Positions 3,879 through 47,618 of a DNA stretch of 64,000 nt are shown piece by piece. The stretch covers positions 1 to 64,000 of the forward strand of contig JAEUKC010000023.1 of NCBI GenBank assembly GCA_016794445.1. Direction: 5' to 3'. The position numbers and the translations under genes were made by a program. The notes under the pieces are model-generated. The model did no database searches. It saw only the letters and a list, made by a program, of their open reading frames with translations, and was not told where the DNA came from. Within the stretch, counting starts at the first letter, position 1, and each line of letters opens with the position of its first letter. The DNA comes from Myxococcales bacterium. GTDB taxonomy: Bacteria; Myxococcota_A; Polyangia; Polyangiales; JADJMO01.

Positions 3879-8445
<4,567 letters not shown>

Positions 8446-20022: not shown

Positions 20023-21273
20023 GTGATCGCGGTCGACGACCTCCTCTCGAAGCTGCCGGCTCCTTCGCTCCCGAAGCCTCTGGGCCGGGCCCCGCTGCAC
20101 GTCGTCTACGGCGGGGCGCACCTGTTCCGGAAGGACCTCGCGCAGCGGCTCGGCGCCCGGGCCCGCGAGGTGCTCGACACCTACGTGGAGGACGGTCGCG
20201 CCCTCGCCGCGCTCGGCGTCGACGCAGCCTCGGCGGACGACGTGCGAGCCCGCGTCGCCGACAAGCTCGCGAAGGAGCCGGTCGAGGATCTGCGCATCGA
20301 CTTCGAGGACGGGTTCGGGGTCCGCGCCGACGACGAAGAGGACCACCACGCGCGGGGCGCTGGCGCCGCGCTCCGCGCTTCGTTCGCCGAGGGGCTCGCG
20401 CCGCCGTTCGTCGGGCTGCGGGTCAAGGCCATGGACCGCCTGCCCCGCGCCGCGCGCACGCTGTCGCTGTTCCTCGAGGCGCTCGGCCCTCTGCCGCCGG
20501 GTCGCTCGCTGCTGGTCACGCTGCCGAAGGTCGGGGACGCGGCGAGCGTCGCGGTGTTCGCCGAGCTCCTGTCCCGCGCCGAGCGTGCGTTCGGTCTCCC
20601 GGACCGCTCGCTCGCGGCGGAGATCATGGTCGAGCACCCGGGCGCGCTGATCAACGAGGGCCGACTCGTGCTCGCCGATCTCGTGCGGGCGCTCGAGGGC
20701 CGCTGCGTCGCCGCCCACTTCGGCAGCTACGACTGGTCGTCGAGCCTCGGGATCGCCGCGCTCGACCAGCACGTGCACCACCCCGCGTGCGACGTCGGCA
20801 AGCTGCTCGCGCTCGTGTCGCTGTCAGGCAGCGGCGTGCGGCTCGCGGACGGCGCGACCACCACGCTGCCGATCGCGCCCCACAAGGCCCCGACCGGCGA
20901 GGCCGAGCGCGCGGAGAACCGCCGCGTGGTGCGGGGCGCGCTGGCGCGTCACTGCGCCGACGTCCGGCGCTCGCTCTCCCTCGGCCTCTACCAGGGCTGG
21001 GACCTGCACCCGGCGCAGCTGGTGTCGCGCTACGCGGCGGTGTTCGCGTTCTACCGGGAGGCCTTGCCCACGGCGAGCGCGCGGCTCGCGGCGTTCGTCA
21101 TGGGGGCTGCGCAGGCCTCGCGGGTCGGCACCGCGTTCGACGACGCAGCGACGGCGCGCGGCCTCGTCGGGTTCTTCGCGCGGGGCCTCGCGAGCGGCGC
21201 GCTCGACGCGGGCGACGTCGCGGCGACGGGACTCGCCGTCGAGCAGATCGAGCAGCCCACGCTCTTCGGTTGA
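20023..21273 (+). CDS. HpcH/HpaI aldolase / citrate-lyase-beta-like family protein (DUF6986-like)
   Basis: Part of ORF 19972..21273. Motifs VVYGGAHLF and DLRIDFEDGFG are typical of the CitE/malate-synthase-like fold. GTG 20023 is preferred because the first 17 codons have poor GC3. Confidence 0.65.
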   Translation: MIAVDDLLSKLPAPSLPKPLGRAPLHVVYGGAHLFRKDLAQRLGARAREVLDTYVEDGRALAALGVDAASADDVRARVADKLAKEPVEDLRIDFEDGFGVRADDEEDHHARGAGAALRASFAEGLAPPFVGLRVKAMDRLPRAARTLSLFLEALGPLPPGRSLLVTLPKVGDAASVAVFAELLSRAERAFGLPDRSLAAEIMVEHPGALINEGRLVLADLVRALEGRCVAAHFGSYDWSSSLGIAALDQHVHHPACDVGKLLALVSLSGSGVRLADGATTTLPIAPHKAPTGEAERAENRRVVRGALARHCADVRRSLSLGLYQGWDLHPAQLVSRYAAVFAFYREALPTASARLAAFVMGAAQASRVGTAFDDAATARGLVGFFARGLASGALDAGDVAATGLAVEQIEQPTLFG

Positions 21274-21315
21274 TCCCCACGCTCTTCGGTTGATCCCCAC
21301 GTTGTTCGGGTGGTC
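21256..21315. repeat. 20-bp tandem repeat x3 (third copy degenerate) at a convergent gene junction
   Basis: CCCACGCTCTTCGGTTGATC occurs at 21256-21275 and 21276-21295. CCCACGTTGTTCGGGTGGTC (16/20 identical) is at 21296-21315. Copy 1 encodes the last codons and stop (PTLFG*) of the plus-strand gene. Copy 3 contains the stop of the minus-strand GGDEF gene. Confidence 0.9.
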
Positions 21316-39361: not shown

Positions 39362-40137
39362 AACGCCTCGCCGCTGCGCTGTTCGTGCTCGCCCTGTCCA
39401 GCCCCGCGCGGGCGGGCGACGCGGAGGCGTGCGCGCAGGCCAGCGAGAAGGGGCAGCTGTTGAAGCTGCAGGGCAAGCTCGCCGAGGCCCGCAAGGAGTT
39501 CCTCGCGTGTTTCGTCGACGCGTGCCCGGGCGTCGTGCGGAAGGACTGCGCGCAGTTCCTCGAGGCGCTCGAGGCCACGCAGCCCACGATCGTGCTCGCT
39601 GCGCGCGAGCCGGGTGGGAACGATCTGGTCGACGTGCAGGTCACGCTCGACGGCGCTCCGTTCGCCGGCAAGCTGGACGGCAAGGCCGTGCGCGTCGACC
39701 CGGGGCCGCACGTGCTGGTGTTCCGCAGCAAGGGGCGCGTCGAGGCGCGGCTCGAGGTGCTGGTGAAGGAGGGCGAGAAGAGCCGCGTGGTGGAGGCCAC
39801 GCTGCCGCTGGTCCCGAGCGAAGCGCCGCGCATCACGCCGGTGCGCACGACGCCGGTGCTCGGGTGGATCGCCGGCGGGGTCGCGGTGCTGGCGCTCGGC
39901 GGGTTCGTCGGGTTCGGGCTCTCGGCGAGGAGCGACGTGCACGCCATGCAGGACACGTGCGGCACCCGGTGCCCACCGGACGACGTGGACCGCGCGCGGC
40001 GCAAGGCGCTGATCGCGGACGTGTCGCTCGGCCTCGCGCTCGTGGCGACCGGGGTGTCGATCTTCGGGTTCGTGCGGCGTGGGGGGAGTGAGCCGACCGT
40101 CGCGGTGGGGCCCGGGTCGCTGAGCGTGCGTTTCTGA
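39358..40137 (+). CDS. secreted Cys-containing protein with C-terminal TM segments
   Basis: GTG 39358 overlaps the tdh TGA (GTGA). The signal is MKRLAAALFVLALSSPARA/GD. The N-terminal region is similar in style to the PEGA protein at 9932. It has two hydrophobic helices near the C-terminus. Confidence 0.7.
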   Translation: MKRLAAALFVLALSSPARAGDAEACAQASEKGQLLKLQGKLAEARKEFLACFVDACPGVVRKDCAQFLEALEATQPTIVLAAREPGGNDLVDVQVTLDGAPFAGKLDGKAVRVDPGPHVLVFRSKGRVEARLEVLVKEGEKSRVVEATLPLVPSEAPRITPVRTTPVLGWIAGGVAVLALGGFVGFGLSARSDVHAMQDTCGTRCPPDDVDRARRKALIADVSLGLALVATGVSIFGFVRRGGSEPTVAVGPGSLSVRF

Positions 40138-40150
40138 GTAGACTCCCCCC

Positions 40151-41365
40151 ATGCCCCCTGCGTCGGTCGCGAGCGCTGCCGTCTCGATCACGAGCCACCT
40201 GCTGGACGCCGCGACGCGCAGCCGCGGGCTCGGTGAGACGCTGACGAGCCTCGCGGCGCGACTGCAGGAGGTGGGCGTCCCGGTCCGACGCATGCGCACG
40301 AGCGTGACGACCAAGCACCCCGAGCTGTTCGTGCTGGCGGTCATGTGGCACGCCGAGCGCGGGACCGAGGTGCGCGACGGCAAGCGCGAGCTGCTCTCGA
40401 CGCCCACGTTCCTCGAGAGCCCAGTCGCCGAGGTGCGCGCGGGAGCACCCCGGATCCGCTGTCGGCTGACGGGCCCCGACGCCGACCTCTCGTACGCCAT
40501 CGCGCGCGAGCTCGCGGCGGACGGGTTGACCGACTACGTGGTGCACCCGCTGATCTTCGGCACCGGCGAGCGCACGTACTTCTCGTTCGCGACCGACGCG
40601 CCCGAGGGGTTCTCGGACGATCACCTCGCGCTCTTCGAGGCGCTCCTACCGGTGCTGAGCGTGCGCGTGGAGCTGGAGTCGACGGGCTACGCGCTCTCGA
40701 GCCTCCTGCAGGTCTACCTGGGCCACAACGCGGCTTCGCGGGTGCTCGAGGGCGCCTTCCTGCGCGGCACCGGACAGCCGATCCACGCCGCGGTGTGGTT
40801 CTGCGACATGCGGGGGTTCACCACGCTCGCCGACCGGCTGCCGGCCGCGGAGGTGGTCACGATCCTCGACCGGTTCTTCGAGAGCGTGGCGGGGCCGATC
40901 GCGCCGCACGGGGGCGAGGTGCTCAAGTTCATCGGCGACGCCGTGCTGGCGATCTTCCCGGTGCAGGCCGATGGCGCCGGCGCGGCGTGCGAGCGCGCGC
41001 TCGCCGCGGCCCACGCGGCCGTGGCCGGGGTCGCGGCCCAGAACGCCGCGGGCACGACGCCGACCGTGGACCTCGGGATCGGGCTGCACGTGGGCGAGGT
41101 GATGTACGGCAACATCGGCGCGCCGAACCGGCTCGATTTCACGGTGATCGGGGCGGTGGTCAACGAGGTGTGTCGCGTCGAGTCGCTGTGTCGCGCGCTC
41201 GCGAGCCCGATCCTGATGACGTCCGCGTTCGCGGCGCTCTGCGACCGCGGCCGCGTGGAGAGCCGGGGGGTCCACGCGCTCAAGGGTGTGTCGGCGCCGC
41301 AGGAGATCTTCGCGCCAGCGGCGCGAGCGTCGTCAGCCGCAGGCGCGCAGCCAGGGGTTGGCTGA
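40151..41365 (+). CDS. class III adenylate/guanylate cyclase with N-terminal sensor domain
   Basis: The cyclase core is VWFCDMRGFTTLADRL...GGEVLKFIGDAVLAIFP...GLHVGEVMYGNIGAPNRLDFTVIGAVVNEVCR. Confidence 0.9.
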   Translation: MPPASVASAAVSITSHLLDAATRSRGLGETLTSLAARLQEVGVPVRRMRTSVTTKHPELFVLAVMWHAERGTEVRDGKRELLSTPTFLESPVAEVRAGAPRIRCRLTGPDADLSYAIARELAADGLTDYVVHPLIFGTGERTYFSFATDAPEGFSDDHLALFEALLPVLSVRVELESTGYALSSLLQVYLGHNAASRVLEGAFLRGTGQPIHAAVWFCDMRGFTTLADRLPAAEVVTILDRFFESVAGPIAPHGGEVLKFIGDAVLAIFPVQADGAGAACERALAAAHAAVAGVAAQNAAGTTPTVDLGIGLHVGEVMYGNIGAPNRLDFTVIGAVVNEVCRVESLCRALASPILMTSAFAALCDRGRVESRGVHALKGVSAPQEIFAPAARASSAAGAQPGVG

Positions 41366-42112
41366 AGGCAGAGCGGTCTCGAGCTTGAATCCGCCCCCGG
41401 TCGGGTTGCGCGTCCACCACTGCAGGCCCTGCGGTGGTGTGCCGGTCGGCGTCGGGTTGCCGGTGAGCTCGAGCTGGTAGCGCGCCGAGTCGTGCGTGAT
41501 CTGGAAGGCGAGCCGGGTCCCTGCCGGCAGCACCGGCAGCGCGTTGCCGTCGCCGTCGCGGAAGTAGAACGAGTACATGTCGCCAGCCTCGTTGACCGGG
41601 AGCTTGCTCACGCGACCGAGCGGCACCAACACTCCGGGGCACGGCATGAGGAAGGCCTCGACGGAGATGGTCCCGACGGCGCCGCCGGCATCCACCGTCA
41701 CGCGCCGGAGCTGGGCGATGAGCTTCTCGTGCCGCCCGGCCTTCGACGTCACGTAGCTGATGAGGTGCGCCTGCTCGCGGCCGAGGCGGGGTGTGAGGCC
41801 CGTGTAGGACGCGAACGCGAACTGCTGTTCGTACGCGCCAGGGGGCGGCGCGGCGCAGGCAGCGGCCGGGATCGTGGTCACGCAGCCGGCGTCGACGGGG
41901 GCTGCGTCGATGGGGCTCGTGCTCGTCTCGTCCCGGCTCGCGTCGCTGTTCCCTCCGTCGATCGGCGGCGTCGCCGCGTCGGTGCTCCCATCGGCGGTCA
42001 CGCCGCCGTCGCTCGTCGCCGAACCCGTGTCCGAGGTCCCCTGGGCGACCTGGAACTCCGAGCTCGAACATCCGACAGAGAGCACCCACACCCACAAGAA
42101 AGCGCTTCGCAT
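41333..42112 (-). CDS. lipoprotein, hypothetical
   Basis: It has the signal MRSAFLWVWVLSVGC/SSS, an Asp/Ser/Thr/Gly-rich linker, then a globular domain. Its 3' end overlaps the cyclase 3' end by 33 nt. Confidence 0.75.
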   Translation of the reverse strand: MRSAFLWVWVLSVGCSSSEFQVAQGTSDTGSATSDGGVTADGSTDAATPPIDGGNSDASRDETSTSPIDAAPVDAGCVTTIPAAACAAPPPGAYEQQFAFASYTGLTPRLGREQAHLISYVTSKAGRHEKLIAQLRRVTVDAGGAVGTISVEAFLMPCPGVLVPLGRVSKLPVNEAGDMYSFYFRDGDGNALPVLPAGTRLAFQITHDSARYQLELTGNPTPTGTPPQGLQWWTRNPTGGGFKLETALPSANPWLRACG

Positions 42113-42140
42113 GGCGCTCCTGGTGCTGGATCCGGGCCAT

Positions 42141-42185
42141 CCCGCTTTTCCCGGGAGGGCCGCGAAAGAGGGCCCTTTCGGGCTG
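42141..42185 (-). terminator. GC-rich hairpin cluster downstream of the repeat-peptide gene
   Basis: The reverse strand reads GCCC-GAAA-GGGC (42183-42172) followed by CCUCUUUCG. Alternative stems are CGAAAG/CUUUCG and GGGCC/GGCCC. There is no clear U-tract. Confidence 0.25.
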
Positions 42186-42226
42186 CCAACCTCGTTGCGG
42201 TATCCCTTACTTCTTGCGTAGCGCGG

Positions 42227-42493
42227 TCACGGGATGACGTGGCCCGCGTCGGTCGACTCCACGTGGCCCGCGTCGTTCGAGAGCGCGTGCCCGGCGTCCG
42301 TCGAGAGCGCGTGCCCGGCGTCGTTCGAGAGCGCGTGCCCGGCGTCCGTCGAGAGCGCGTGGCCCGCGTCGGTCGAGAGCGCGTGCCCCGCGTCGTTCGC
42401 GGCGGAGTGGGGGTCGCCGCTCGCGGCCGAGACGCGGAGAGCGACGAAGACGGCAGCGGCAGCGAAGACACCAACGGTTGCGCGGTCGATCAT
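42227..42493 (-). CDS. small secreted protein made of His-containing octapeptide repeats
   Basis: AAGGAGG lies 7 nt upstream of ATG 42493. The signal peptide is MIDRATVGVFAAAAVFVALRVSA/AS. The mature part is DPHSAAN followed by DAGHALST x2, DAGHALSN, DAGHALST, DAGHALSN, DAGHVEST and DAGHVIP. Confidence 0.75.
   Translation of the reverse strand: MIDRATVGVFAAAAVFVALRVSAASGDPHSAANDAGHALSTDAGHALSTDAGHALSNDAGHALSTDAGHALSNDAGHVESTDAGHVIP
42230..42394. repeat. 24-bp tandem repeat array (about 7 units)
   Basis: The plus-strand units are GAGAGCGCGTGCCCGGCGTC(C/G)(G/T)TC and close variants. They encode the octapeptide repeats on the minus strand. Confidence 0.95.
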
Positions 42494-42556
42494 GGGCGAG
42501 CCTCCTTGGGGTTGCAGGACCCCGAACGGACCGGCCGCGGGGAGCTGAAGCCGGAT

Positions 42557-43156
42557 TCACTCCAGCGTCGTGCGGGCGACGAGGCCCTCGAAGCGCTCGC
42601 GGTCGGCGGCGGCCTTCTTGCGCTTGCGGCGCAGCCAGACGAACAGCACCGCGTGGACCGTCGCGGCGACGCCGAGACCGACCGCGGCCCGCAGCGGCGC
42701 TCGCTGGTACTGCTGCGCGTGGCTCAACACGAGCCACGCGATGCCCACGACCACCACTCCGAAGAGCGCGAGGTGGGCGCTCCACGCGAAGCGAGCGAGC
42801 GTGTCCTCTGCGCGAAGCCGCCGCCGCGTGAGCTCGACGTACCGATCGACCGACGCCCCTTCGACCGCGAGCAGCCCCCAGCGCTCGCCGTAGAAGCGCG
42901 CGAGCCAGACGCCGTTGAAGATCGAGATGGCTACGGCGATCGCGGCCACGGCCGGCGTGCCGCGCGTTCGGACCACGAGCGCCGTGAGCACCACGGTGGA
43001 GAAGGCCGCGCCGAGGGTCTCGTAGACCAGGCCGCGGCGCAGCTTGTTGCCGTCGCGCGTGCAGCGCTCGGCGAGCGCGTCGAGCGCGGCCGGGTCGCCG
43101 AAGGTCTGCCATTCGGCGCGCCAGCCGGCGAGCTCGGGATCGGGATCGTGGGTCAT
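42557..43156 (-). CDS. 4-TM membrane protein, putative anti-sigma factor / ECF partner
   Basis: Its ATG overlaps the sigma-gene stop (ATGA at 43153-43156). The cytoplasmic N-terminus is (ELAGWRAEWQ...). It has four hydrophobic helices. There is no zinc HxxxCxxC anti-sigma motif. Confidence 0.55.
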   Translation of the reverse strand: MTHDPDPELAGWRAEWQTFGDPAALDALAERCTRDGNKLRRGLVYETLGAAFSTVVLTALVVRTRGTPAVAAIAVAISIFNGVWLARFYGERWGLLAVEGASVDRYVELTRRRLRAEDTLARFAWSAHLALFGVVVVGIAWLVLSHAQQYQRAPLRAAVGLGVAATVHAVLFVWLRRKRKKAAADRERFEGLVARTTLE

Positions 43157-43716
43157 GGGGTTCCTTCGTGCTCCTCGAGGAGCACGCGCAGGGCCGCGCG
43201 CGCGCGGTGGGCGCGCACGGCGACGTGGTTGACGGTGAGGCCGAGGACGTCGGCGATCTCCTGGTGATCGAGGCCCTCGAGCAGCAGGGTCACGACCTGC
43301 CGGTGAGAGAGCGGCAGCGCGCGCACCGCGGCGAGCAGGCGCGCCTCGCGGTGGCGGCGCTCGTAGGCGAGCGCGGGGTTCTTGCCCGAGGTCGCGACCA
43401 CCCGGTCCTCGTGGTCGTCCACGTCCTCGGTCGGTCGACCCCGCTTGGCGAGGAAGGCGAGCGCGCGGTTGTGAGCGACGCGGAAGACGAACGTGCGCTC
43501 GGAGCAGTCGCCGCGGAACCGCGGGAGCGCGGTGAAGAGCGCGAGGGCCACGTCCTGGGCGAGGTCCTGGCGGTCGGCCGGGCTGCGTGCGTAGCTCGCG
43601 AAGAGCCGGGACAGCGGCGCCGCGTGTGCGTCGAGGAGGCGGGCGAGGCGCGCCTCCAGTGACTCGCCGCTCTTCTCGTCGGGCGTGGTGCCGGGGTGGG
43701 TCATCTCGAGGGTCAC
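43153..43716 (-). CDS. ECF-type RNA polymerase sigma factor
   Basis: Region 2 is DRQDLAQDVALALFTALPRFRGDCSERTFVFRVAHNRALAFL. Region 4 is LPLSHRQVVTLLLEGLDHQEIADVLGLTVNHVAVRAHRARAAL. Confidence 0.9.
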   Translation of the reverse strand: MTLEMTHPGTTPDEKSGESLEARLARLLDAHAAPLSRLFASYARSPADRQDLAQDVALALFTALPRFRGDCSERTFVFRVAHNRALAFLAKRGRPTEDVDDHEDRVVATSGKNPALAYERRHREARLLAAVRALPLSHRQVVTLLLEGLDHQEIADVLGLTVNHVAVRAHRARAALRVLLEEHEGTP

Positions 43717-43759
43717 AGAGGGGTAGTCCGCGCTCCCGCGGAAACCTTACGAGCTCCGT

Positions 43760-44305
43760 TCATTTCAGGCGACGAAGCACCGCCTTGAGGCGACCCACGA
43801 CGGTCGGCCCCTTGCAGCCCTGGATCTCGTCTCCGGCCGAGAACAGCGTCGTCGTCTGGACGTGCGCGAAGTCGACCTCGAGGGCGTCGCTGTCGAGCAG
43901 GCGGGCGCGAAGCGGCTTGCCCTCGTGATCGGCGGTGAACTCGCTGGTGCAGGCCACTCGCGCGCCGTCGTCCGCGTAGGGCTTCGACTGCGAGAACGGG
44001 CGGTAGCGGTCGGTCACCTGGTATCCGCCGGCCTCCGCGTGGAGCGCGAAGCGCACCTCCTCGGGCTGGTAGGCGCCGCCCCACTCCTTCGCCGACACGA
44101 CGTGGAACGTGTAGGCGTCCCCCTTGGCGCGCACGTCGAACAGACGGCCCGTCGTCTCGGCGCGCCACCGGCCGAGGAGCGAGACCGAAGGCTCGGCCGC
44201 GTCGGTCCTGGGCGCCGGCGCGACCGGGCCAGCGTCGTCCCCGCGGATGCCGTCCCGGCGACAGCCGACGAGGACCACGAGCAACGCGAGGGCCCAGCGG
44301 GACAC
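43760..44305 (-). CDS. lipoprotein, hypothetical
   Basis: This is the 3' part of ORF 43760..46048. GTG 44305 gives VSRWALALLVVLVGC/RRD. It starts 2 nt after the yghU stop. Confidence 0.7.
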   Translation of the reverse strand: MSRWALALLVVLVGCRRDGIRGDDAGPVAPAPRTDAAEPSVSLLGRWRAETTGRLFDVRAKGDAYTFHVVSAKEWGGAYQPEEVRFALHAEAGGYQVTDRYRPFSQSKPYADDGARVACTSEFTADHEGKPLRARLLDSDALEVDFAHVQTTTLFSAGDEIQGCKGPTVVGRLKAVLRRLK

Positions 44306-44307
44306 GG

Positions 44308-45159
44308 TCAGCCGCGCGGCGGGTCGAAGTCGCTCGCGTCGTGACGCTCGCGGAGCTGGGTCTCCGGCGGGCCCCACGGCCGGTTCACGCGGCGCCCGCG
44401 CTGCACGGCCGGGCGCTCGGTGATCTGGCGCGACCAGCGCGCTACGTTCGCGTAGGTGCCGACGTCGAGGAACTCCTGCGCCCCGTAGATGTCTCCGGTG
44501 ACCAGCTCTCCGTACCAGGGCCAGGCCGCGATGTCGGCGATGGAGTACGCGTCGCCCGCGAGGTAGGCGTGGCCTTCGAGGCGCCGATCGAGCACGTCGA
44601 GCTGGCGCTTGGCCTCCATCGTGTAGCGGTCGATCGCGTACTCCACCTTGATCGGAGCGTACTTGAAGAAGTGACCGAAGCCGCCGCCGAGGATCGGCGC
44701 CGCGCCCATCTGCCAGAACAACCACGAGAGGCACTCGGTGCGCGCGCGTGCGTCGCCCGGAATCAAGGCGCCGAACTTCTCGGCGAGGTAGAGGAGGATC
44801 GAGCCCGACTCGAAGACGCGCGTGGGCGGGTCGGTGCTGCGGTCCATCAGCGCGGGGATCTTCGAGTTGGGGTTGACCTCGACGAACCCGCTGCCGAACT
44901 GGTCGCCCGAGAGGATGTCGACGATCCAGGCGTCGTATTCGGCGCCGGCGTGCCCGAGTGCCAGGAGCTCCTCGAGCATCACGGTCACCTTCACGCCGTT
45001 CGGCGTGGCGAGCGAGTAGAGCTGGAGCGGGTGGCGACCGACGGGGAGTTCCTTGTCGTGCGTGGGCCCGGCGATCGGCCGGTTGATGTTCGAGAAGGCC
45101 TGGCCGCTGTCCTTGTTCCAGGTCCACACGCGCGGCGGGGTGTAGGGCGTGTCGCTCAT
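44308..45159 (-). CDS. yghU: nu-class glutathione S-transferase YghU
   Basis: It is collinear with E. coli YghU as I recall it (VWTWNKDSG.AFSNINRPIAGPTH, HPLQLYSL.TPNG.KVT.MLEELLALG, GAEYDAW, GDQF.SGFVEVNPNSKIPAL, ERHDASDF). Start set at MSDTPY (45159). Confidence 0.9.
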   Translation of the reverse strand: MSDTPYTPPRVWTWNKDSGQAFSNINRPIAGPTHDKELPVGRHPLQLYSLATPNGVKVTVMLEELLALGHAGAEYDAWIVDILSGDQFGSGFVEVNPNSKIPALMDRSTDPPTRVFESGSILLYLAEKFGALIPGDARARTECLSWLFWQMGAAPILGGGFGHFFKYAPIKVEYAIDRYTMEAKRQLDVLDRRLEGHAYLAGDAYSIADIAAWPWYGELVTGDIYGAQEFLDVGTYANVARWSRQITERPAVQRGRRVNRPWGPPETQLRERHDASDFDPPRG

Positions 45160-46087: not shown

Positions 46088-47140
46088 TCAGCGACCGATC
46101 GCGCCGGGCGTGATGGCCTCGAAGGCGTTTCCGGGGATGGCCTTGAGGGCGTTGAGCTGGTCGTCGTTCCAGCCCGGATCGAGGTCGCCCTGGAAGAAGT
46201 AGTCGCTGCCGTTGTCGGCGAGGATCATCCCGTAGGTCTTCATGGCCTGGGCGACGACCTTGGCCTGCGCGGGGAGCGCGGAGATGTCGTACGAAGCCTT
46301 GAGGCGGACCCGCAGACCCATGGGCGGGTAGTCGGCGCGGAGCGCGTCGCCGACGACGCCGGCGGGGCACCCGCTGCCGCCGCGCGGCACGGCCTGGTGC
46401 GACGCGGGCTGTACGTAGCCGTCCTGCGTGCAGTGCATGGTGAAGCGGATGGCGTGGTTGACGACGCCGGCGGCCACCTCGGAGTAGCGCACGAGCCCCG
46501 GCAGGATCGCGAGGCCCGCGGCGTCGGCCGACGTCCACTTGATCGGCCGCTGGCCGTAGCTGTTCTTGGTGAGGTCGAACTTGGCGCCGCTGCCGCACTG
46601 CCAGCTGCTGGAGCCCGCGTTGTAGTGGCAGTCCCACGCCTCGTAGAGGAGACAGCTCCCCTGCACCACGGTCAGCACGTGGCAGTCGCCCGAGCAGTCG
46701 GCCGGCGTGCCGCCCTCGATCTTGGCGCTGGCTCCGGGGAACGGGTACGGCCCCGGGTCGCTCTCGTCGGCGTAGTCGAAGCTGATCGGCAGCTTGGGCT
46801 GCGACGCGGGCACGACGTTGAAGGGGATGCCGTACGCGGTGCCGAAGTCGGGGTGCAGGCTCTTCTTGGTCGCGTTGGCGTACAGCTTGGTGGTCCAGTT
46901 CGCGTCGACCGAGGCCGAGGCCGGGATGGGCGTGTTCCACGCGTCGCTCGCGGGGAAGACCGGGCAGCCACCCACCGTGCTGGGGCCGCCTCCGCCGCCG
47001 TCGACCGGGGTTCCGGTGTCGATCACGCCTCCGGAGTCGGTGACCCCGGTCTCGTCGACGCCGCCGTCGGTGGCGGCGGCGGTGGAGTCGGAGCAACCGA
47101 CGGCGAGCACGGCGCAGGCGAAGAGCGAGGTACGCAGCAT
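46088..47140 (-). CDS. lipoprotein, hypothetical
   Basis: Part of ORF 46088..47314. ATG 47140 gives MLRTSLFACAVLAVGC/SDS. A Gly/Asp/Thr linker precedes a Cys-containing globular domain. I recognise no family. Confidence 0.75.
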   Translation of the reverse strand: MLRTSLFACAVLAVGCSDSTAAATDGGVDETGVTDSGGVIDTGTPVDGGGGGPSTVGGCPVFPASDAWNTPIPASASVDANWTTKLYANATKKSLHPDFGTAYGIPFNVVPASQPKLPISFDYADESDPGPYPFPGASAKIEGGTPADCSGDCHVLTVVQGSCLLYEAWDCHYNAGSSSWQCGSGAKFDLTKNSYGQRPIKWTSADAAGLAILPGLVRYSEVAAGVVNHAIRFTMHCTQDGYVQPASHQAVPRGGSGCPAGVVGDALRADYPPMGLRVRLKASYDISALPAQAKVVAQAMKTYGMILADNGSDYFFQGDLDPGWNDDQLNALKAIPGNAFEAITPGAIGR

Positions 47141-47195
47141 GGCGATGAGACTACGCGGAGGGACGCGCGCGAACCACTGCGCCGAGATCGAGCCG

Positions 47196-47211
47196 TGGCA
47201 CGCACCGTGCT
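47196..47211 (+). promoter_or_regulatory. sigma54 (-24/-12) promoter candidate TGGCACGCACCGTGCT
   Basis: It matches TGGCACG-N4-(T)TGCW with exact GG-N10-GC spacing. The predicted TSS at ~47222 leaves a 19-nt leader containing GAGAGG, 7 nt before ATG 47241. Confidence 0.55.
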
Positions 47212-47240
47212 CGACTTGGGGCGCCCTCGAGAGGTGTGCC

Positions 47241-47618
47241 ATGTCGAGCCTTCGCGTCCTCGCAGCGTTCTCCGGTCTGAGCGTCGCCATGTTCGGCTGT
47301 AGCACCTCCGACATGCCCCCACCGACGGGGTGCGGCGATGGCCATGCCCTGTTCTACGCGGCGGCGGGCTGTGGTTCCGCCACCCCGACGCCGCTGTGCC
47401 TGGACGACTCCCTCACGACCGACGGCTGTTACAGCGAGATCTGCGACTGCACCGGCAAGACCCGCGTCGCGATCTGCGACGACCGCGTCTCGACCACGCC
47501 GTGGTCGCGCCGCGGCGCTTGCGGGAGAGATGATGGCGGGGCGGACGCCGACGCGAGCGACGCCAGCGACGCAGCCGATGCGATCGACGCGCTCGGCGAC
47601 GGGAAGACCTCCGACTAG
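47241..47618 (+). CDS. small Cys-rich lipoprotein with acidic Asp/Ala/Ser tail
   Basis: ATG 47241 is in frame with ORF 46794..47618. The signal is MSSLRVLAAFSGLSVAMFGC/STS. The mature part has 11 Cys. The tail is DDGGADADASDASDAADAIDALGDGKTSD. Confidence 0.7.
   Translation: MSSLRVLAAFSGLSVAMFGCSTSDMPPPTGCGDGHALFYAAAGCGSATPTPLCLDDSLTTDGCYSEICDCTGKTRVAICDDRVSTTPWSRRGACGRDDGGADADASDASDAADAIDALGDGKTSD

Follow-up and report, generated by a model that had tools for sequence, protein, structure and literature searches.

The question raised by this locus is whether a sigma factor of the extracytoplasmic function (ECF) type, a membrane protein and a small secreted repeat peptide, encoded one after the other, make up a single envelope-sensing module, and what the peptide contributes to it. 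The window, i.e., the whole stretch of DNA that was analysed (64 kb, 72% G+C, contig JAEUKC010000023.1 of a Myxococcales bacterium), carries the three corresponding open reading frames (ORFs) on its minus strand, at 43153-43716 (sigma), 42557-43156 (a protein with four transmembrane helices, hereafter the 4-TM protein) and 42227-42493 (an 88-residue repeat pre-protein). An earlier, sequence-only reading of this DNA had described the three ORFs accurately, all of the features and coordinates it gave being present in the sequence, and had proposed that they form one sensing unit. Our results point to a different arrangement, in which the first two genes very probably constitute a sigma/anti-sigma module in their own right and the third is a lineage-restricted addition. 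For the system as a whole we favour, tentatively, a self-regulated ECF sigma/membrane anti-sigma module with an add-on secreted repeat peptide as its output, possibly a metal buffer.

The sigma gene (43153-43716, minus strand) encodes an ECF, or group 4, sigma factor of 187 residues when read from the GTG at 43716, an ATG at 43704 being the alternative start. Pfam identified Sigma70_r2 (residues 28-94, E 1.2e-10) and Sigma70_r4_2 (residues 126-176, E 1.4e-11), and the NCBIfam model TIGR02937 (sigma70-ECF) scored 73.9 bits, for a cut-off of 42.9. The protein thus consists of the sigma-2 and sigma-4 domains alone, within the ~180-200 residues that characterise group 4. All 24 NCBIfam models of named ECF subfamilies (RpoE, SigH, SigW, SigX, CnrH-like and others) remained far under their cut-offs, the RpoE model for instance reaching 60 bits for a cut-off of 236, and the relatives in PDB were generic (SigH, SigE, AlgU, RpoE and CnrH, at E-values of 3e-13 to 1e-8).

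The 4-TM gene (42557-43156, minus strand, 199 residues) begins with an ATG that overlaps the sigma stop codon (ATGA). Hydrophobic segments were found at about residues 43-62, 66-89, 119-149 and 154-176, and hydropathy and charge together indicated an N-in/C-in topology, with a cytoplasmic N-terminus of ~41 residues, a basic cytoplasmic loop and tail, and two predicted periplasmic loops, RTRGT (5 residues) and HAQQYQRAPLR (11 residues), that amount to ~16 residues in all. Both of these short loops carry two Arg and no acidic residue, while the single Cys of the protein lies in the cytoplasmic N-terminus. An AlphaFold2 (AF2) model built from six homologues displayed four long helices, with a predicted local distance difference test score (pLDDT) of 76. 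Neither zf-HC2 nor any other Pfam or NCBIfam family was matched, the HxxxCxxC motif was absent, and PDB contained no match in sequence or fold. The earlier description of a protein with four transmembrane helices, without a recognisable zinc anti-sigma domain and ATGA-coupled to the sigma gene, was therefore borne out by hydropathy, AF2, Pfam/NCBIfam and the sequence itself. A profile search returned 132 cluster representatives among 1.84 billion, of ~190-210 residues and matching end to end, and the 61 members of the family that were considered had no Pfam family; a search with a six-sequence 4-TM alignment led to three loci. Members share the motifs ELxxWxxEWQxxG in the N-terminus, FNGVWL in the second helix, TRRRL in the cytoplasmic loop and YxxxPWR in the second periplasmic loop, and R63 and R156 are invariant in an alignment of the six closest ones. 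We regard the 4-TM protein as a putative anti-sigma factor. Its family, like the promoter motif presented below, is undescribed as far as Pfam, NCBIfam, PDB and the ECF re-classification text show.

The association of the two genes is clearly conserved. Each of the 12 distinct relatives examined has an ECF sigma gene directly 5' of its 4-TM gene (loci L001, L002/3, L004, L005-8, L009-11, L038, L076, L077, L078, L079/80, L081/82 and L083), and the junction, inspected in six gene pairs, was a 4-nt overlap in five and a 2-nt gap in the sixth. In L004, L077 and L078, the sigma factor was 68-75% identical and its 4-TM partner 35-44%; such a slow sigma and fast partner are an asymmetry typical of sigma/anti-sigma pairs. 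The functional pairing proposed in the sequence-only reading is thus well supported by genes that adjoin in every relative examined and mostly overlap by 4 nt. Within the closest clade, the ratio of nonsynonymous to synonymous substitution rates (dN/dS) of the sigma gene, between the window and L038 ("Myxococcales bacterium EsbW_18-Q3-R4-48_BATAC.438"), was 0.11. In L001 (metagenome-assembled genome GCA_964269395.1), the sigma gene has, at about 5830-5845, one base more than its counterparts in L038 and the window. This insertion, probably an assembly error, leads to an out-of-frame fusion with the 4-TM ORF, and the gene caller skipped the sigma.

Autoregulation of the pair is suggested by the upstream DNA. 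A candidate autoregulated ECF-type promoter at 43721..43753 (minus strand) was recognised as a phylogenetic footprint: the element TGTAAGGTTTC-N11-CGGACTAYCC is kept 5' of the sigma gene in eight loci whose flanks are otherwise unalignable (alignment of upstream DNA), and the motif was also present in L079 and in the distant, low-GC L083, which brings the footprint to 10 loci (the window, L002, L004, L009, L038, L076-L079 and L083). In the window, it comprises a -35-like GTAAGG (43745-43750) and a -10-like GGACTA (43724-43729), with 16 nt between GTAAGG and GACTA, and it ends 7 nt before the sigma GTG. It is, moreover, singular in the 64 kb, where a position weight matrix derived from eight sites scored 44 bits at 43721..43753 and at no other site more than 12, and where TAAGG-N14-20-GACYA had a single match. 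Because the GTAAG-N16-GACTA layout fits the two-block architecture of ECF promoters, GTAAGG-N16-GACTA is the putative promoter by which the sigma factor would drive its own operon. A GTG or ATG lies 6-8 nt past the -10 block in all eight aligned loci, so that the sigma mRNA may be leaderless or nearly so.

The third gene (42227-42493, minus strand) is separated from the 4-TM gene by a 63-nt spacer (42494..42556) and possesses its own Shine-Dalgarno sequence, AAGGAGG (42501-42507), which precedes the start codon (ATG, 42493) by 7 nt. Its 88-residue product comprises, in this order, a Sec-type signal peptide (residues 1 to ~23-25, with a 15-residue hydrophobic core and the cleavage motifs VSA/SAA/AAS within VSAAS), the heptapeptide DPHSAAN, six octapeptides of the form DAGH(AL/VE)S(T/N) and, at the C-terminus, DAGHVIP. 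The composition given previously, with eight His, eight Asp and no Cys, was confirmed, as was DPHSAAN, while the count of seven octapeptides is to be amended to six complete units and a truncated C-terminal one. The mature chain (~6.1 kDa, pI 4.8) contains 8 Asp, 8 His and 1 Glu, with no Lys, Arg, Cys or Met, His accounting for 13% of its residues. The corresponding DNA is an array of 24-nt units (42230..42394, minus strand, seven DAGH units), delimited by Tandem Repeats Finder (TRF) at 42238-42399 (period 24, 6.8 copies, 86% matches, score 219) as the strongest of only three tandem arrays in the 64 kb. The word GAYGCNGGNCAY occurs nine times in the window, for 1.7 expected, seven of these in the array. 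A single-sequence AF2 model folded the peptide into one long helix (pLDDT ~80), which we distrust, since it was drawn from one sequence, since a stable amphipathic face is not to be had from a period of eight residues, and since the unit contains Gly, Ser, Thr and Asp.

Several lines of evidence indicate that this ORF is a gene. Its G+C contents at codon positions 1, 2 and 3 (0.74/0.56/0.92) resemble those of the sigma gene (0.80/0.48/0.94), and the other five frames lack this pattern. An orthologue of 96 residues with eight repeats was reached in L001, on a syntenic contig, through the neighbouring 4-TM gene, and the same 96-residue protein was found in L038 by a DNA pattern scan of GTDB genomes; in L076, where the 4-TM protein is 91% identical, the peptide gene begins and the contig then ends. 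Comparison of the window with L038 reveals 36 nt differences in the gene and 8 residue differences in its product, with a dN/dS of 0.12, in the range of the flanking genes (0.11 to 0.23). D, A, G, H and S are invariant across all full units of both lineages, variation being confined to positions 5-6 (AL/VE) and 8 (T/N), and the Shine-Dalgarno sequence, the start, the signal peptide and the C-terminal HV(I/V)P are conserved. Purifying selection on the peptide is thus shown. The array nevertheless evolves in concert, as the Ala5 codon is GCG in every unit of the window and GCC in every unit of L038, and as both the copy number (7 versus 8) and the unit types (5 AL + 1 VE versus 4 AL + 3 VE) differ between the lineages; substitution counts within it are therefore not independent events. 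In the 33 non-repeat codons, ~3 non-synonymous changes stood against 6 synonymous ones. Taken together, a coding G+C pattern, a Shine-Dalgarno sequence, a Sec-type N-terminus and orthologues justify the view taken in the sequence-only reading that this is a genuine, exported-looking repeat protein, and we consider it probable, with good confidence, that the peptide is both real and exported, its export being predicted from the features of its N-terminus.

Nor does the repeat belong to a described family, as had been suspected. The peptide had no family (Pfam, NCBIfam), PDB or paralogue match, and a protein search of 5.8 billion proteins returned nothing; weak similarities to Phage_fiber_rpt (Pfam, E 0.0014, under the cut-off), to ALTTAQ_rpt and to a short tail fiber in PDB (E 0.17) were rejected as driven by composition. 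This failed protein search is not evidence of absence, since the 88- and 96-residue peptides are themselves both missing from a 15-billion-protein collection and since the composition correction of HMMER penalises repeats. The short-read contigs of the same or related organisms (L005, L006, L008 and L076) indeed all break inside the 24-nt array, which accounts for the absence of the peptide from the protein collection. More generally, the gene is truncated or missing in most public assemblies because contigs end in the array or at a palindrome, GGCCGCC...GGCGGCC, that lies 50 nt past the 4-TM stop codon in L009-L011, a clade whose 4-TM proteins are 75-76% identical; these last contigs were not counted for the presence or absence of the peptide.

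The distribution of the peptide gene differs sharply from that of the pair. It was found in the closest clade only (4-TM protein at least 88% identical), namely in the window, L005/6/8, L076, L001 and L038, and it was absent from all of the more distant relatives with readable downstream DNA, i.e., L002, L004, L078, L079, L081 and L083. In L002/L003, L078, L079/80, L081/82 and L083, a convergent gene lies within ~45 nt of the 4-TM stop codon or overlaps it, and in L004 the 4-TM gene is followed by an unrelated, Ser/Gly/Thr-rich lipoprotein-like ORF. With the pair in all relatives and the peptide in the closest clade alone, the unit is one of two genes and the third is a recent addition. The proposal that the three genes form one sensing module is thereby left without support: synteny of the repeat with the sigma/4-TM pair holds in the closest clade (L001, L038 and L076) and is lacking in more distant relatives. 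The peptide is a lineage-restricted add-on in one genus-level clade of uncultured Myxococcota.

How this added gene is expressed can be approached through the spacers on either side of it. The 63-nt spacer upstream contains no copy of the GTAAGG-N16-GACTA motif, no terminator and no sigma-70 promoter match, and its folding was not above that of shuffled sequences (z of +0.76 in the window and +1.44 in L038); a sigma-54 promoter considered there by eye was rejected on account of its wrong GG/GC spacing. The 27 nt at the 3' end of this spacer, including the Shine-Dalgarno sequence, are identical in the window, L076 and L038 but for one C. Downstream, the 114-nt spacer contains in the window a small GCCC-GAAA-GGGC hairpin followed by CCTCTTTC (42161..42187, minus strand), tentatively identified by folding, a possible weak terminator of the operon; its fold is not significant (z = -0.42) and the consensus terminator scan missed it, and the equivalent spacer in L038 bears a different, strong hairpin (z = -4.25). 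Scans of 41900-44400 for sigma-70 promoters and intrinsic terminators returned nothing. As neither a second copy of the promoter motif nor a hairpin or terminator was found in the 63-nt gap, the sigma, 4-TM and peptide genes appear to be read as one transcript that ends past the peptide gene, and co-transcription of the peptide as an output of the operon, rather than as a sensor, is moderately probable. Having a strong Shine-Dalgarno sequence of its own and no promoter motif of its own, the peptide would be made when the sigma factor is active.

In mechanistic terms, the 4-TM protein would hold the sigma factor at the membrane by means of its ~41-residue cytoplasmic N-terminus (ELxxWxxEWQxxG), perhaps with a contribution of the basic loop and tail. 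Since the protein has almost no periplasmic surface, sensing is expected in or at the membrane, i.e., it may respond to a signal there or through the short conserved YxxxPWR loop. The freed sigma factor would then use GTAAGG-N16-GACTA to transcribe the operon that encodes it. To the 3' end of this operon the small gene would have been joined, in a single genus-level lineage of uncultured Myxococcota, adding as product a Sec-exported, very acidic DAGH(AL/VE)S(T/N) chain of ~6 kDa, with one His and one Asp per unit. Located in the periplasm or outside the cell, this chain might bind or buffer divalent metal cations in a multivalent, low-affinity manner, and would be the effector of the response, not its sensor.

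Whether the peptide binds metals is the least secure part of this scheme, and by analogy with known binders we regard metal binding as possible, if somewhat doubtful. In its favour, the mature part offers eight His and nine acidic residues with no basic one, a D-x-x-H spacing and a Gly-His dipeptide, and in-frame DAGH units elsewhere sit inside obviously metal-binding His-rich tracts. Indeed, in Streptomyces sp. NPDC048606 (L019, 4919-6613, plus strand), the His-rich loop of a LarC-type nickel-insertion protein (Pfam Ni_insertion, E 3.8e-128) is extended by (DAGH)x7 immediately before DHHHDHHDHDHDHH (DHHHDHH). Two similar-looking Myxococcota lipoproteins without a Pfam family (L020, 6743-7921, plus strand; L045, 4715-5554, minus strand) carry long C-terminal His-rich octapeptide arrays, with DAGHEHAD and with DAGHHHGE at least 10 times, L020 having in addition a DDDDHDHGDHSH tract at its N-terminus; both are probably envelope proteins that bind metals. 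A secreted protein of 237 residues in Deltaproteobacteria bacterium IMCC39146 (L040, 2804-3517, minus strand) combines poly-Gly, (GHDA)x5 and ~25 copies of EHMQG, a His/Met pentapeptide repeat that recalls copper-binding motifs.

Such occurrences must be read with their frame in mind. The DAGHx4 DNA pattern had 64 genome matches, most of them off-frame or non-coding, and those in Pseudomonas, Cupriavidus, Ralstonia and Frateuria were rejected as CopA or CopB read in the wrong frame. At three loci checked, the true frame encoded the octapeptide MDH(G/S)xMQG, in CopB (L055, and L042 by sequence) and in the multicopper oxidase CopA (L031); both are exported copper proteins with Asp/His octapeptide repeats (MDHGSMQG). 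Other off-frame loci include L021, L025, L027, L033, L041, L061 and L062, and the genera include Zobellella. A DAGH reading that arises off-frame in Cop genes implies that the motif alone proves nothing, and it calls for caution in frame-blind repeat searches.

Several observations weigh against the reading that we favour. On the metal side, no metal-homeostasis gene was found in the neighbourhood of the operon, and Hpn, SmbP and the Cop repeats are much richer in ligands than the peptide, whose repeat has one His per eight residues and no Met or Cys. Low-complexity linkers rich in D, A and G are, furthermore, common in secreted proteins of the window, the genome and the phylum, so that the composition of the peptide could reflect a linker origin and GC-rich codons rather than metal chemistry. 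On the regulatory side, no known anti-sigma domain of Pfam, NCBIfam or PDB was matched in the 4-TM N-terminus. To these should be added that dN/dS is an unclean measure in an array that evolves in concert, that the AF2 helix of the repeat, from a single sequence, is weak, and that the support is computational throughout, drawn from sequences and models.

The linker argument leads to the alternative that survives best, although we judge it rather unlikely: the peptide would be a young, lineage-specific orphan, born from a D/A/G-rich linker by tandem expansion and devoid of any metal role, either an acidic disordered polypeptide of the envelope (a spacer, a decoy for cationic compounds or a component of the matrix) or a near-functionless cargo. 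Its confinement to one clade and its absence from more distant relatives with readable DNA are in line with such a birth, as are the turnover of repeat copy number and unit type between lineages and the want of a family, paralogue or structural match. Linkers rich in D/G/A/S/T are present in the adjacent lipoproteins at 41333-42112 and 46088-47314, and linkers of the DAGHDAGF type in Sandaracinus lipoproteins (L026 and L029). By contrast, a dN/dS of ~0.12, five residues of the unit (D, A, G, H and S) that never vary among the full repeats of the two lineages, and the conservation of the translation and export signals and of the HV(I/V)P end argue for a maintained function of the peptide, and one regular His per unit is atypical of plain linkers.

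In the opposite direction, metal binding might be taken further than in the reading that we prefer, the peptide then representing a new class of secreted bacterial metal-binding polypeptides, made on demand under the control of an ECF sigma factor. Each DAGH unit would coordinate a single Cu(II), Ni(II) or Zn(II) by its His together with Asp or backbone amides, in a manner close to that of the prion octarepeat. The 4-TM protein would found an anti-sigma family not described before, one that senses inside the membrane and possibly feeds back on the metal-loaded peptide by way of its basic periplasmic loops. This extension, built by analogy, is subject to the considerations on metal binding set out above, and we hold it to be improbable.

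The model put forward in the sequence-only reading assigned the peptide a part in sensing itself, as a periplasmic ligand-binding co-sensor or modulator, similar to CnrX or RseB, acting on the 4-TM anti-sigma factor. Third genes whose products modulate an anti-sigma factor are known (RseB, CnrX; PMC8103513), the operon linkage would suit such a role, and an electrostatic contact between an acidic peptide and the Arg-bearing loops of the 4-TM protein is conceivable. At least six other lineages, however, have the sigma/4-TM pair with its promoter but no peptide, so that the module does not need it, and the conserved loop residues are just as conserved where the peptide is absent. In addition, the ~16 periplasmic residues of the 4-TM protein offer little to contact, and the low-complexity peptide contains no folded sensor domain. 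A co-sensor is accordingly quite unlikely, and the peptide is better regarded as an output.

A multi-core precursor, cut between units (e.g., ST|DAGH) into seven or eight octapeptides that would serve as signals, metallophore-like chelators or products of the type of ribosomally synthesised and post-translationally modified peptides (RiPPs), appears very unlikely. Near-identical tandem units with invariant boundaries (S-T/N | D), maintained in copy number and sequence, would be expected of such a precursor. It would, however, require machinery that the locus does not offer, no protease, modifying enzyme, transporter, exporter or immunity gene being adjacent and no dibasic or other recognisable processing site being present; bacterial RiPP precursors, for their part, usually have leader peptides and not Sec signals.

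Least probable of all is that the small ORF is no gene but a tandem DNA repeat in the 3' untranslated region or intergenic DNA, kept open by chance at 72% GC: long spurious ORFs are common in high-GC DNA, several even overlap the peptide region, the same DAGH reading appears off-frame in proteobacterial CopA/CopB genes and the product is missing from the 15-billion-protein collection, but the peptide frame alone has the genomic coding signature, the array is preceded by a canonical signal peptide and by a strong, correctly spaced Shine-Dalgarno sequence, frame, start, stop context and amino acid sequence are kept across lineages despite the 36 nt differences, and the absence from the collection is accounted for by contigs that break in the array.

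The genes that surround the operon comprise a GST, lipoproteins that belong to no family, a class III cyclase, epimerases, an aminotransferase and a TetR regulator. The peptide gene is followed, after 114 nt, by that of the 259-residue lipoprotein at 41333-42112 (minus strand; lipobox LSVGC, D/G/S/T-rich linker, no Pfam family), which is kept in L001 and L038, with a dN/dS of 0.13. On the other side, a small lipoprotein-like gene (43760 to ~44300, minus strand; LVVLVGCRRDG) separates the sigma promoter from a GST-like gene in the window, L001, L005 and L038, while in L076 the GST-like gene directly adjoins the promoter. The two other TRF arrays of the window are at 21256-21309 (20 nt, 2.7 copies) and 39873-39927 (26 nt, 2.2 copies). 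Rfam had no match anywhere in the window.

If the preferred reading of a self-regulated pair with an added output is correct, it brings to light an undescribed and compact family of what are probably polytopic anti-sigma factors, counting ~130 sequence clusters and absent from Pfam. Its clear cognate promoter, GTAAGG-N16-GACTA, would allow regulons to be predicted by genome scan and the pair to be used as an orthogonal regulatory part. It would also illustrate how a conserved sigma/anti-sigma operon can take up, as an output peculiar to one lineage, a young gene for a secreted product built of repeats, and would provide a small, tractable example of the birth of a new gene under purifying selection. 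Should the peptide bind metals, it would represent a minimal natural His/Asp octarepeat chelator. Genes of this kind are probably under-counted, since repeat genes drop out of short-read assemblies and escape composition-corrected searches.

The association of an ECF sigma factor with a membrane anti-sigma factor is a known arrangement. In Caulobacter, SigF is an ECF sigma factor controlled by NrsF, a six-helix DUF1109 anti-sigma factor with little extramembrane mass and conserved periplasmic Cys, involved in the response to chromate and cadmium. The 4-TM protein shares with NrsF the polytopic organisation and the small extramembrane mass, but it has four helices instead of six, no DUF1109 match, and a cytoplasmic rather than a periplasmic Cys. 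Anti-sigma factors with four transmembrane helices have been recorded for three ECF groups and those with six in five groups (PMC7826278). The closest described analogue is ECF209, reported only from Actinobacteria, in which a short four-helix protein without any known anti-sigma domain is encoded at +1 and autoregulation is predicted (ECF re-classification, 2021, supplementary text). Compared by that description, the two systems share the short four-helix protein at +1 of the sigma factor, and the predicted ECF209 promoter (CCGTGAACC-Xn-CCGACTGT) contains GACT in its -10 CCGACTGT, as does CGGACTAYCC in the operon of the window, while its -35 is CCGTGAACC, versus TGTAAGGTT here. The phyla differ (Actinobacteria versus Myxococcota), and no third gene comparable to that of the peptide is described for ECF209.

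The CnrYXH system of Cupriavidus metallidurans, whose logic the sequence-only reading had invoked, resembles the present operon in combining an ECF sigma factor, a membrane anti-sigma factor and an exported third protein. The class II anti-sigma domain of CnrY is very short (PMC8103513) and thus similar in length to the 41 N-terminal residues of the 4-TM protein. The parallel fails, however, on anatomy: CnrX, a metal sensor of the periplasm, is folded, anchored in the membrane and conserved together with its partners, whereas the DAGH peptide is of low complexity and not conserved with the pair, and CnrYXH needs a periplasmic anti-sigma segment that contacts the sensor, whereas the 4-TM protein has loops of only ~5 and 11 residues. 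The sigma factor itself resembles CnrH only generically (PDB search, E 1.2e-8).

As for the peptide, its nearest counterparts are to be sought among small exported metal binders. SmbP of Nitrosomonas europaea and PcoE/SilE are small, Sec-exported, His-rich periplasmic proteins with short repeats that bind several divalent cations per chain; SmbP is made of heptad repeats and has far more His than the DAGH peptide, and PcoE/SilE use Met as well as His. With these proteins and Hpn, the peptide has in common a signal peptide and a short-repeat, His-containing mature chain, metal binding being here a candidate property, and no sequence homology (no Pfam/NCBIfam match above noise; best PDB match a phage tail fibre, E 0.17). 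The use of SmbP has been documented (PMC10893511). The MDH(G/S)xMQG repeats of CopA and CopB/PcoB are likewise tandem octapeptides with Asp and His in Sec-exported copper-resistance proteins; they are Met-rich and lie within a multicopper oxidase or an outer-membrane protein, whereas the DAGH peptide is Met-free and stands alone, the DNA match between them being off-frame. The mammalian prion octarepeat PHGGGWGQ, finally, has one His per eight residues after Gly and binds Cu(II) through the imidazole and backbone amides. Proteins and organisms are unrelated in this case, and the analogy with the DAGH unit is one of chemistry alone.

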